This document shows, piece by piece, positions 4,690 through 34,327 of a stretch of 64,000 bases of DNA. The stretch is from Octopus sinensis (lineage: Eukaryota). The stretch lies in assembly GCF_006345805.1 (NCBI RefSeq), contig NC_043005.1:48856001-48920000 (forward strand), in the 5' to 3' direction. Numbering within the stretch: the stretch's first letter is position 1; each line of letters starts with the position of its first letter. The position numbers and the translations under genes are program-made. A model generated the notes under the pieces. That model was given only the letters and a program-made list of their open reading frames with translations, did no database searches and was not told the origin of the DNA.

Positions 4690-4789
4690 NNNNNNNNNNN
4701 NNNNNNNNNNNNNNNNNNNNNNNNNNNNNNNNNNNNNNNNNNNNNNNNNNNNNNNNNNNNNNNNNNNNNNNNNNNNNNNNNNNNNNNNN
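4690..4789. other. Assembly gap (100 N)
   Basis: Run of n. Confidence 1.
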
Positions 4790-10154: not shown

Positions 10155-10363
10155 TGTATGTATGTATGTATGTATGTATGTATGTATGTATGTGTGTGTG
10201 TGTATGTATGTGTGTATGTATGGTCTTGCTCACACATACAAAGATACACAGATCACAGATGCATACATTATATTTAAGCTAATTACTATGTCACATTTTG
10301 AATGTTGAATATTCAAAACTTGTAAAAAAATAGTACTAATATATTTTTTTTTTTCTATTGCAG

Positions 10364-11850
10364 AAATGAAGACATAGTGCCTCACACTAGCGAGGATGTA
10401 GGTAAATCTGTGATGTCCCAGAATGCAACATATTCTTCCGATGTAGATAGAAGACATGAAGACATAAGTCACAATAGTCAAAGACAGCTTCCTCCAACAA
10501 CTGCCATTGTTAGCGACATCTCTCAAAGGCATGCTTCCGCTTCTACTGCCACAGCTTCTGTTGAGGAACTAAATGGTCAACAGAGCATTGAAGACGTAAG
10601 TAGTAGATTCTCAGAAATAGCTAATCACAGACAACCAGAAAGTCTCGATCATAGAAACTGTGAAGAATTCAATAGTCGACACCTGGATGAAAGCAGCAAT
10701 AGGCAGGAAGTGGGTTACAGACATGTTAATCAGCTTAATAATCGGCATGTTAACGAACATGCTCTCAGGCACTCCGAAGACTTACACCATAGACATAGTG
10801 ATGGCTCATCTCTAAGAATTACTGCTGAAGAATCGACTCTTAGACATCCAGAGGACCCTAGTTTAAGAAATACTGAGGAATCAATTCTCCGACACTCGGA
10901 CGATAACATGCTTCGACATTCAGACGACTCGATCCTACGCTTACCTGACAGCATCGTACAGAGACACGCTGATGAACTGAATAAATGTCATCCAGGAGAA
11001 ATAAGGCATTCAGAAGATTTAAGACATCAAGACGATTTAAGACATCAAGATGATTTAAGACATCAAGATGATTTGAGACACTCTGAAGAATTGAGACCTC
11101 CTGAAAGCCTGAGGCAATCTGAAGATTTGAGACATTCTGATGATCTCAGACACTCTGATGAGTTGAGACATCCAGAGAATTTGAGACATATTGAGAAGCT
11201 GCGTCACCAAGATAGTTTCAGACATTCAGGAGATCTCAGGCATCCCGATGAAATGCATCATCGAGATGACTCGAGACATCAAGACGACCTCCATCATCCT
11301 GAGAGCCTAAGACATCCGGAAGATCTAAAACACCTCGAAGACTTGCGTCATCCGGATGAATTAAGGCATCCAGATGAGTTGAGCTATCGCCATCCTGACC
11401 AGCTAGGTCTTCTCCATCCAGATACAAAATTGAACCATAGGCGACCAGATGAATTGACACCAAGGATTCCAGATGATCTTCGATGTAGGCAAATGGGTGA
11501 ATTAAGTCATAGGCACTCAGATGAGCTTGGTCATAGACTTTCTGACGATCTTGTACCTCAGTTTCCTCAAGATTTAAGCCCAAATAACTCAGATGATCTC
11601 AGTCCACAGCATTCCATTGATGATTTAAATCTTCGGCATCCTGGATCCGACTTTAGTCAGCGATATCATGATGATTTAAGTTTACGAAACCCAGACTCAT
11701 ATCAGCCAAATGTCAGCAGTTACAACAATATCAGCATCAACGAACTTTCACCTCATACACCTCAATCTATTTCACCTTCATCTCTTCCTGATGTTACATG
11801 TCACCTCAATAATGAGGGTATTTTCGTATGTCACTTATGCAACTTTTCAG
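10364..11850 (+). CDS. hb: hunchback coding exon A: His/Arg/Asp repeat region and first half of N-terminal finger 1; first in-frame ATG at 10413
   Basis: Polypyrimidine acceptor ttttctattgcag ends at 10363. The frame is open to the donor CAG|GTGAGT (11850/11851, phase 1). It ends in FVCHLCNFS, which exon B completes into a C-X2-C-X12-H-X3-H finger. An upstream exon is implied but was not located. Confidence 0.85.
10620..11700 (+). repeat. Coding tandem repeat: 21 LRHxDD/E-type hexapeptides (11001-11378) flanked by degenerate octapeptides
   Basis: Read directly from the translation, with 18-nt periodicity such as ttaagacatcaagatgat. Confidence 0.9.
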
Positions 11851-11859
11851 GTGAGTCTC

Positions 11860-11954
11860 CTTCTTCTTCTTCTTCTTCTTCTTCTTCTTCTTCTTCTTCT
11901 CCTCCTCCTCCTCCTCCTCCTCCTCTTCCTCTTCTCCTCTCCCTCCTCCTTCTT

Positions 11955-29289: not shown

Positions 29290-29519
29290 TCGCTGGTAAA
29301 GAGGCATTCCAAGAACACACTTCCATCCATTTTAAACATGCATGCCCAATGTGTGAATATAAATCAAGAACCGAAGGAAGACTGAAAAAACATATTGAGA
29401 ACTTTCATAGCAACACTTCTCCAGAACAACTGGCTGCCAATAAACAGAAGAAAGGCAAGATGCCGGCTAAACCAAAGAAATTTACTTGTAAAACTTGTGG
29501 CCATGAAACACCTACAAAG
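29290..29519 (+). CDS. hb: hunchback coding exon B: end of N-finger 1, N-finger 2, start of central finger 1
   Basis: Acceptor (t)n-aaattgcag ends at 29289 (phase 1). Reads (V)AGKEAFQEHTSIH-FKHACPMCEYKSRTEGRLKKHIENFH...FTCKTCGHETPTK. Donor AAG|GTACTT at 29519/29520 is phase 0. Confidence 0.93.
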
Positions 29520-31375: not shown

Positions 31376-34327
31376 GTGGAATTCTGGTCACATGCCCGCT
31401 CTCATATGCGAGAGGATAAAGTCTTGAACTGCCAGTTTTGTCCGTTTGTCACTGAGTATAAGCATCATCTGGAGTATCACCTGCGAAATCATATGGGTTC
31501 AAAGCCATTCAAGTGTAGCCAGTGTAATTACCGCTGCGTTAACAAGTCCATGCTAAACAGTCACATGAAATCACATACTAACGTCTACCCATTTCGTTGT
31601 CAGGATTGTGGATATGCTACTAAATATTGCCACAGCCTGAAGCAGCATCTGGATAAGCTAGGACACATGCCATCCACTGTCCTTAACAGTGATGGCAGCC
31701 TTCCCCAAGGACTCGATAACAATGTTTCTCGGCTGAGATTTGCAAAAGGCCGACGTGTCAAAATAGCGTGCAGGGGTCCGACCCTGCGCAAACCCGATAG
31801 GCGCCAGTATATGCAGGGTGGGTTCTTTCCTATGGGGATGCCACCCCAAGTGATGAATGGAACAGTACTCCCACCATACTGGCATTTAATGAACCAGATG
31901 CCTCCGAATGGCTTTCATCCAGCTGTGCCAAGACCACCCCCGCCACTGATTCCAGTCTCTGGGACGCACTCAGGCGATCCGCACCAACATTCACCTCAAC
32001 AACAACAACAGCAATCACCTTCCCAGCAACAACAGCCACCACCACCACCTCCTCCACAACAACAGCAACCACACCAACAACATCCACCAGCACCACAACA
32101 GTCACCACAACAGCAGCAACCACTACCACACCAGCCACCACTCCAACAGCAACCACAACCACAACAGCAGCAGCCTCTGCAGCCGCCGCATAACCAGCAG
32201 CAACCGCAGCCTCTGCAACCACCTCATCCCCCTCATGCCCCTTCACAACAGCTCTCACAAGGCCAGCAGCACACACAGCAGTCACAGGTTCAACTCCCAA
32301 CACAGCCATCGCAGCAACATCCGCAACAGCTTCCACAGCATCATCATCATACACAGCAACAACATCAACAACAGCAGCAGCAACAACAACAACAGCAACA
32401 ACAGCTCTCCACTCTACAACAGTCTCAGAACCAACAACACCAACAACAACAGCAACCACAACAACAACAACCACAACAACCACCACAACAACCACAACAA
32501 CAACCTCCACAACAACAAATGCAACAACAACAGCAAACACAGCAAGCACAGCAGCATCAGCAGCATCCCCCACAAGATATTTCTGTTTCTACCTCAGTGA
32601 CATCTGTTGTCAATTCAGGCTTGTACAAGTGTACCTTCTGCAGTGTAACAACTGAAACTATGGAAGCCTTGAACAACCACCTCTTAAAAGTTCATGCTGC
32701 AGAGAACCAAGATTTATTTAATGCTTTTGGCATTTCCTCTGAAGCACTCCTTGAAGATCACAATTTGCGATCAACAATGATATCAAATACGTTTAATCAA
32801 CCTGATGTTTCAGACACTAAACGAACAGAAACATCAGATTCAATGTATGGAAGCTCTGATACAAATTTTCAGCAGTCAAACAATGGAAGTCCACAATTTA
32901 CTGATATCAAATCTGACATAAAATCAGAGAATGTTCCACCGAAATCTAATGGTGTGGCTACACATTCCATAATTCAGTCCAGTGAGTCAACATCACCCCA
33001 GGCTAGCACAATCAAACAAATGATGAACCGCTTTGGTATGGGTCCTCTTTCTGCATCTCAAGCCAGCCCTGATGTGCCACAAACAACTGAAATTCCTCTG
33101 GACCTACGTAAACCAAAGTCACCGATCATGTCTACTCCTTTCATAGGTGGTGGTCATGACCTTGAAGGCAGAAATAACAACCTTCCTGGTTCTACTGTTC
33201 AGCCAACAAATGTTCTTACTTCCCCCATCACAAGCATCCATAGCTCTGCGATGACAAACATGAAACGTACTCCTTTTCAAGAAGCCATACCTAAGAAACG
33301 ATCTAGAAAAAGCAGAGCATTTAAGCGAGACACTTTTCAAATAAAATATGAAGACCATCTGTCTATGACAGATGTCGATGAGGAACTTTCTCATGGTAAT
33401 AAAAGCAGTAGTGTTAGCCCAGATGTGCCGCCAGATTGCATGGAACCTCAAACCTCTGAGTGTACATCAGATACAGCAGCATATTCCATGTACTCTGCGG
33501 ATAAGAGAAAGACACCGACTGAAGATTACCCTACTGGATCTTTCCGGTCAACTCCAAGCAACGAAAAGAGTCCACAAGGGACGGAAGAACATGTGATCAG
33601 CTATGAACAGCTTCATAAAAGTTTGCAGATTCTCAATGAAGAACTAGAGCATAAACCAGATATCTCTGGTCATCTTCCTAGCGGTCAGCTCAACGAGAGT
33701 ATGTCAGTTTCACAACAACAACAGCAACAACCTCCTCCTCCTCCTCTTCCTCCCCATCCTTCACAGCAGCCAGTACAGCAAAACCCCCAGCTAACATCAC
33801 AGCAACTCCCACAACCTTCAACATCAGCCTCTGTATCATCCGACAGTGTTTCTGGTGATCTCTTACCTGAACAAATGAATCATTTCTTAAACACATATTA
33901 TAGCCAACAAAATTCTTTGTCAGGGATGCATCGTCGGGGTTCTAAAATTGCAATGCAAATAATCCAAGAGACAGGTAGTAGTAGCCAACACCAAGCAAAC
34001 AATCAAACGCCTCCTTCAAATTCAATGCTACCCCCACAACACAATGGGAATGTTCCCCCATTCAGACGTTACCCCATGAATCCCAATGACGGTGGCAATC
34101 CAAACAATAATAGCAATCCAAAAATGGATCGCAAAAACAAAGATCAAGAGAATGAAGAAACATTTGAGTGTGGGCATTGTGGCATTGTCTACAGAAGTTG
34201 TATAATGTATACCATTCACATGGGCTATCATTGCCAACAAGACCCACTTAAATGCAACATGTGTGGACATCAAAGCAGAGATAAGATAGAGTTTTTTATC
34301 CATATTGCCAGAGCACCCCATGTATAA
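31376..34327 (+). CDS. hb: hunchback terminal coding exon C: central fingers, Q/P-rich tract, extra finger, basic box, two C-terminal fingers
   Basis: Acceptor tctttttacttacag ends at 31375. Contains Hb signatures [50 protein letters not shown] and KCNMCG. TAA stop at 34325-34327. Confidence 0.97.
31981..32570 (+). repeat. Coding Gln/Pro/His-rich low-complexity tract (CAA/CAG/CCA)
   Basis: Translation shows polyQ and QQP repeats between central finger 4 and the extra finger. Confidence 0.9.

Follow-up and report, generated by a model that had tools for sequence, protein, structure and literature searches.

A periodic His-Arg-acid repeat in the N-terminal arm of an octopus Hunchback

Hunchback (Hb), a factor studied in depth for its part in patterning and neural timing, recognises the Hb DNA site and forms dimers via its C-terminal fingers. 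Its disordered arms as a rule change in evolution with no pattern being conserved. At the present locus of Octopus sinensis, a long run of tandem units built around Arg, His and acidic residues is encoded in the N-terminal arm. The question raised by the locus is whether this repeat belongs to the protein, whether its peptide pattern has been selected, and what it might do. The repeat is real, coding, spliced and selected on the peptide pattern.

Gene structure and Hunchback identity

The window, i.e. the whole 64-kb stretch of DNA that was analysed, is AT-rich and full of microsatellites. The following parts of the gene were located in it (the finger groups of Hunchback are named NF, MF, ExF and CF):

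10364..11850, + strand: hunchback exon A, 1487 nt, with the N-terminal low-complexity region and the first half of finger NF1; AG at 10362-10363, GT at 11851-11852, ends also given by contigs
10413..10415, + strand: first in-frame ATG of exon A, a possible start judged from the frame
11829..11850, + strand: Cys-x2-Cys half of NF1, cut by a phase-1 intron; read from the joined frame, with the same donor position in contig L001
29290..29519, + strand: exon B, with the His half of NF1, NF2 and the Cys half of MF1; its first 30 letters equal the contig ends in 4/4 runs
31376..34327, + strand: exon C, with the rest of MF1, MF2-MF4, a polyQ/P region, an extra finger, the C-terminal finger pair and the stop; junction with exon B putative

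Sequencing contigs of four runs, presumed to be RNA although none is recorded as such, were compared over 10330-11860. The contigs aligned over 10363-11850 and departed at these ends. In all four runs, which belong to four studies, they left the genomic sequence at 11850 and continued with 29290-29319 (30 identical letters), as expected from the original prediction that exon A is spliced to exon B. The RNA origin of the runs follows from the contigs themselves, because a jump over 17.4 kb with exact GT-AG borders amounts to a splice. The junction between exons B and C was placed by GT/AG, frame and finger spacing and is therefore putative. Both introns interrupt a finger, and the joining restores the canonical spacing (C-x2-C-x12-H-x3-H across the A/B junction). 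The joined exons A, B and C comprise 1555 codons without an internal stop.

An upstream exon was joined to the 5' end of exon A in runs X1 and X13, and the main frame is also open through 30 letters of it. The upstream exon was not found in the 64-kb window at up to 3 mismatches. A 100-base assembly gap is situated upstream of exon A, at 4690-4789, and the upstream exon may lie there or beyond the window. The loose 5' end of run X3 resembles a sequencing adapter. Near the 5' junction (10364-10377), two very short out-of-frame upstream reading frames were observed, one beginning in the upstream exon and the other at 10366; translational control by them is possible if the start is at 10413.

Nine C2H2 fingers were determined in the joined frame, at residues 489, 514, 562, 591, 619, 647, 991, 1504 and 1532. 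This 2+4+1+2 layout is also found in named Hb proteins. The middle fingers shared 77-81% identity with bivalve Hunchbacks, and most of the named matches among the best 120 were either hunchback or uncharacterised with the same layout. The layout and the closest middle-finger matches bear out the earlier assignment of the gene to Hunchback. The octopus protein resembles spiralian and other protostome Hunchbacks (Mizuhopecten P0005, Mytilus P0011, Capitella P0018, Owenia P0025) in its nine-finger layout, 74-81% middle-finger identity, first-finger intron and long low-complexity N-terminal arm. In a 28-row tree it was grouped with spiralian rows; the tree is weakly resolved and has no outgroup beyond Hb, and its branches are unreliable for the rows which lack the C-terminal finger pair (Pomacea, Macrostomum) or are misaligned there.

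A close relative, P0002, is present in the database as exon C only and was 81% identical to the octopus protein over that exon (99% over the finger core). The two were placed on a long stem of 0.89, compared with 0.02-0.2 for most molluscs. Only these two have Gln at recognition position 6 in the fourth of the middle fingers (n = 109: Leu in 101, Met in 5, Ile in 1, Gln in 2). Within the basic K-x-x-A-F/Y-K-L motif, which is conserved, both have Arg (n = 76: Leu in 72, Ile in 2, Arg in 2). Judged from the sequences, the changed finger and basic-motif residues may alter DNA or cofactor specificity. The polyQ load of the octopus protein, 55 residues in runs of at least 4, was the highest of 114 Hb proteins. 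A long Gln/Pro/His tract in exon C (31985-32556) explains much of the length gap to P0002 (973 versus 828 residues from the same Met).

A degenerate exon-end pattern was detected at five loci in metagenome contigs. Four of them contained short frames only, and the fifth, L001, was Hb-like without the repeat; this contig, from a marine metagenome, holds a Hunchback exon of an animal, and the exon stops at the same first-finger intron position.

Make-up of the array and selection on its peptide pattern

The repeat region of exon A was divided as follows:

10716..10982, + strand: left flank, 11 degenerate octapeptides (one of them with 9 residues), by period-8 self-identity
11001..11378, + strand: core, 21 hexapeptides, by reading of the frame
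11379..11558, + strand: right flank, about 7 degenerate octapeptides (units at 11385-11558), by period-8 self-identity
11559..11700, + strand: irregular echoes of the repeat motif, by motif survey

One open frame spans 10365-11849, and the remaining five frames of the core contain 3-16 stops apiece. The 21 units of the core stand in tandem and in frame, and all were recovered exactly as originally predicted. The unit is hydrophobic-R-H-x-D/E-D/E: the first position was hydrophobic in 20/21 units, the second R, K or H in 21/21 and the third His in 19/21, and the last two were D/E in 20/21 and 16/21, respectively. Position 4 is free (P, S or Q), with Pro in 7 of the 21 units. The motif R-H-x-[DE]-[DE] was counted 19 times in 10620-11699, whereas 10,000 shuffles gave 0.28 on average and never more than 4. 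The period-6 self-identity was 0.226 (shuffle maximum 0.153), and the period-8 self-identity was 0.35 in the left and 0.33 in the right flank. Instead of the proposed dozen or so octapeptides on each side, the left flank has 11 and the right about 7. The regular array, about 40 units in all, is about 280 aa long; the periodic domain of about 360 aa proposed originally was an overestimate, since the remainder consists of just scattered motif echoes.

The comparison of all unit pairs resulted in a pS of 0.75, near saturation, a pN of 0.29 and a pN/pS of 0.39. Neutral simulations (n = 600) were given as many changes as observed, with stops as the sole exclusion, and assume star-like ancestry and uniform mutation; their mean pN/pS was 0.76-0.89 and the minimum 0.46. 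Third codon positions held 58 of the 100 mismatches to the unit consensus (simulated share at most 0.46), and R-H was kept in 16/21 units (simulated maximum 11). The peptide pattern is considered to be under selection because its pN/pS is below the neutral minimum at a pS near saturation, and the protein-level constraint with synonymous variation that had been suspected is thereby confirmed. With a pN/pS of 0.83, position 4 is nearly free, and the other five positions are held by residue class. The pN/pS of the His codon, 0.08, reflects just 2 replacements; by class, Leu, Arg and the acids were kept about equally.

The unit-to-unit identity was about 0.6 and flat with distance, apart from a young block of 3-4 copies in the core (11012-11080, 94% matches). 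The array is therefore old, with no homogenisation under way. A frameshifted repeat in related species had been named as evidence that would speak against the domain; neither a frameshift nor a change in unit number was detected in the near-identical contigs of three organism labels, which agree to 99% or more and do not include labels D and E. Run X13 differed at 5 sites, 4 of them synonymous, and had no indels (P 0.013-0.044; small sample). An A-to-G difference at 11106 (Ser to Gly) was present in X13 and X10, and another at 11210 (silent) in a minority of the X10 depth. These differences within the repeat could be alleles or A-to-I editing.

Distribution of the array and repeats in other Hunchbacks

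The occurrence of the unit was surveyed in 45 Hb proteins that matched an NF2 pattern and had an N-terminal part of 150 residues or more; the NF2 pattern excluded decapod and other rows. The motif hydrophobic-R-[HQN]-x-[DE] was found in 21 copies in the octopus N-terminus and in none of the 44 others. Bivalves, gastropods, annelids, nemerteans, brachiopods and flatworms are represented among these, some of them possibly with incomplete gene models. The repeat is thus not general in lophotrochozoan Hb in this set; a general occurrence there had been named with the original prediction as a possible refutation. Among the first 99 of 120 Hb-related rows, R-H-x-[DE]-[DE] occurred at most once per protein.

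Orthologues of exon A were absent at E 0.001 among 7834 longer candidates and at E 0.01 among 7996 candidates of near length, blanks that weigh little as the best 120 matches to the conserved fingers also lacked a named cephalopod protein. A phmmer scan with exon A gave 35 matches, and the 34 inspected (P0159 was left out) were repeat analogues, none of them Hunchback-like. Since no cephalopod orthologue of exon A was retrieved, "lineage-specific" means here absent outside cephalopods.

Of 118 other Hb proteins, 5 were found to have unrelated tandem repeats in disordered parts of the chain: those of a crayfish (P0080, 82-152), a tick (P0066, 458-530), two gastropods (P0043, 893-1007, and P0024, 1269-1339) and a planthopper (P0100, 93-118). 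The units are an octapeptide in the crayfish, a charged 8-mer in the tick, a 13-mer in the snail, a 19-mer in the whelk and a 7-mer in the planthopper. As these five proteins carry their own unrelated repeats, repeats in Hb tails are recurrent, and what is unusual in the octopus array is its age, length and retained pattern. A parallel in place and composition is the repeat of the crayfish Procambarus clarkii, which is also N-terminal and rich in R, H and D. Its octapeptide of D, R, A and H occurs in about 9 near-identical copies and arose from a motif of which other decapods have one copy. The crayfish repeat looks young and independent, whereas the octopus array is old, longer and diverged. 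L-R-H-x-x-x arrays were also present in unrelated predicted proteins, e.g. an owl-monkey model.

A literature search, with supplements and most subscription papers outside its reach, returned nothing on cephalopod Hunchback or its repeat; the supplements of octopus genome papers or single-cell atlases may name the gene. The gene is an unremarkable Hunchback, and the repeat is apparently an undescribed variant of a known phenomenon, i.e. lineage-specific repeats in transcription-factor tails.

Structure, charge and possible roles of the array

The FoldIndex of the core was -0.49, and the core contains one aromatic residue; disorder is therefore predicted from its composition. AlphaFold2 was run with the single sequence (mean pLDDT 51, pTM 0.18) and with 13 alignment rows (mean pLDDT 55, pTM 0.24), the rows being unrelated analogues without true covariation, and neither run having true homologues. 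Strands were absent from both models. In the run with the analogues, helix was predicted for the first five units, which lack Pro, at a pLDDT of about 80, and coil for the Pro-rich half. The hexapeptide consensus of the left-handed beta-helix, [LIV]-[GAED]-x-x-[STAV]-x, was fitted by 0/20 units in any of the six registers. Exon A had no Pfam Hexapep match, the PDB sequence search gave nothing better than E 0.7, and Foldseek with the low-confidence model found no match; the best ESM Atlas scores, 0.80 and 0.81, were at chance level. Judged from the models and the consensus, the solenoid of the original prediction is unlikely. FAM222A (PF15258) was rejected as a relative: the core matched it at E 0.0012 with 18.5 bits, under the 27-bit gathering cut-off, and unrelated hexapeptide-repeat proteins matched it too. 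The match is best read as shared periodicity, not kinship.

The core (126 residues) contains 21 K/R, 36 D/E and 21 H, corresponding to an NCPR of about -0.1 at pH 7.4. With a His pKa of 6.5, the computed charge was -12.6 at pH 7.4, -4.4 at pH 6.5 and +1.4 at pH 6.0; with a pKa of 7.0 it passed zero near pH 6.6. The change between pH 7.4 and 7.0 was just about 3 charges over the 126 residues. According to Greig et al. (10.1101/771592), an Arg mixed-charge domain at NCPR -0.1 does not condense, and net charge controls R-MCD condensation. Considering the core charge of about -13 at pH 7.4, a soluble, extended arm is therefore expected at resting pH. The condensate formation suggested earlier would accordingly be disfavoured, as the core is computed to be net acidic at pH 7.4, a regime reported to abolish condensation.

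Like the Arg mixed-charge domains of speckle proteins, the array has Arg and Asp/Glu evenly mixed in a low-complexity nuclear region. Greig et al. define such domains by a charged fraction of at least 0.7 in 60 residues and a positive:negative ratio of 1:1 +/- 0.3. In contrast, the charged fraction of the array was at most 0.48 (0.63 counting His), and the ratio in its most charged segment was 10:19, becoming 21:17 only with all His positive. The label "mixed-charge" thus has to be dropped by the published definition, on both counts.

The array also resembles BRD4, in which, according to PMC11118380, a His-enriched disordered region provides His-dependent pH control of a nuclear condensate: both are His-rich disordered regions of transcriptional regulators with a charge that shifts between pH 7.4 and 6.5. 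The His blocks of BRD4 are described there as lying in neutral Pro/Gln tracts and its condensate as dissolving on acidification, whereas in the octopus array His residues stand six apart among acids, P+Q is 11% and the NCPR is -0.12, away from the minimal net charge of the HPQ criterion. Since the His residues are spaced among acids, acidification would shift the arm towards neutrality, which predicts a sign opposite to that of BRD4. The smoothed His delta-charge peak of the array was 2.55, compared with the BRD4 criterion of >1 in the same source, with a Gaussian unnormalised here and a normalisation that may differ in the paper. A further likeness is to the poly-His tracts of developmental transcription factors, for which Salichs et al. 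(PMC2644819) give speckle-targeting runs of at least 5 His. The longest His run in the array is 2, and a speckle signal of this kind was ruled out.

The array is perhaps a mostly disordered, net-acidic tail which makes many weak contacts and helps to keep Hunchback soluble, a reading to which we give somewhat less than an even chance. Slippage or unequal crossover would have amplified the octapeptide unit first and the hexapeptide unit next, and the copies would then have diverged almost to synonymous saturation with the residue classes kept. The Leu-Arg-His triplets may serve as weak contact points and the acidic pairs as repulsive spacers. At nuclear pH the arm would be extended, would counterbalance the long polyQ/P stretch in exon C and might tune the association of Hunchback with cofactors or with itself; titration of His would modulate it only under unusual acidity or metal load. 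Against this stand the strict periodicity and the near-invariant H-x-D/E, which exceed the needs of a generic soluble tail, and the room that AlphaFold2 without true homologues may leave for a fold. Such a fold, whether salt-bridged helices or a beta-solenoid containing a ladder of His, and possibly dependent on metal or a partner, is quite improbable. It would account for the strict 6- and 8-residue periods, the helical first five units and the hexapeptide protein P0144, with its Pfam Hexapep match, among the top phmmer matches, but the units do not fit the beta-helix consensus, exon A lacks a Hexapep match, the models contain no strands, the PDB and Foldseek searches were empty, and there is one hydrophobic residue per unit with Pro at position 4 in a third of them. 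It is hardly probable at all that the repeat stays outside the protein, exon A being transcribed with a later start or the repeat being a DNA-level minisatellite. The two short upstream ATGs around the 5' junction, both out of frame, would suit a later start; the synonymous excess, however, is seen in the coding frame only, and a start downstream of exon A would delete NF1, which is intact and conserved.

As other Hunchbacks do without the array and five of the 118 carry unrelated repeats, the array may be merely tolerated, having grown by slippage in a permissive region under weak purifying selection against harmful residues, with no new function. This smaller but serious possibility is in line with the crayfish octapeptide, with the similar arrays in unrelated predicted proteins and with a genome very rich in simple repeats, the gene itself having long polyQ. 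Yet the five-position pattern was kept near synonymous saturation, well outside the neutral simulations, and the unit number was constant in the contigs of the three labels, though these are nearly alike. Slightly less probable, in our estimation, is a role of His as a switch, in which H+ or Zn2+ at H-x-D/E would cancel the negative charge of the arm and lead to self-association or partner binding, Hunchback then responding to nuclear pH or metal load. H-x-D/E is a metal-ligand pair, its His and the acid two residues on are among the best-kept positions of the unit, also by the low His pN/pS, and the computed core charge passes from negative to positive on acidification. On the other hand, free zinc in the resting nucleus stays at levels much too low for the affinity that unstructured His/Asp sites usually have, the step from pH 7.4 to 7.0 moves the core charge little, and the His pN/pS depends on two changes, with Leu, Arg and the acids similarly kept. 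The governing of R-MCD condensation by net charge (10.1101/771592) and the pH control of the BRD4 nuclear condensate (PMC11118380) are favourable to the switch.

In its boldest form, an octopod Hunchback with a built-in proton/zinc switch, about 40 evenly spaced H-x-D/E units would hold the protein in dispersed form at resting pH and, once protonated or metal-loaded, would give a neutral arm that enters condensates or binds partners. We regard this as unlikely. If true, a conserved neural and developmental timing factor would be coupled to cell acidity or metal status with a sign opposite to that of BRD4, in a lineage whose Hunchback has also altered otherwise fixed finger and cofactor-motif residues. 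A real switch would give a developmental regulator a sensor of a kind not seen before; otherwise the array would simply add to the lineage-specific repeats of permissive regions. For such a switch the sequence predicts an array that is soluble at pH 7.4 and that self-associates near pH 6.5 or with zinc. An old, selected and strictly periodic His-Arg-acid array in one lineage also offers a natural way to study how expanded repeats in the tails of transcription factors come under constraint, with the crayfish, tick and snail Hb repeats as independent comparisons. Related hydrophobic-R-Q/N-x-D/E hexapeptide runs were observed in the unnamed proteins P0153 and P0154.
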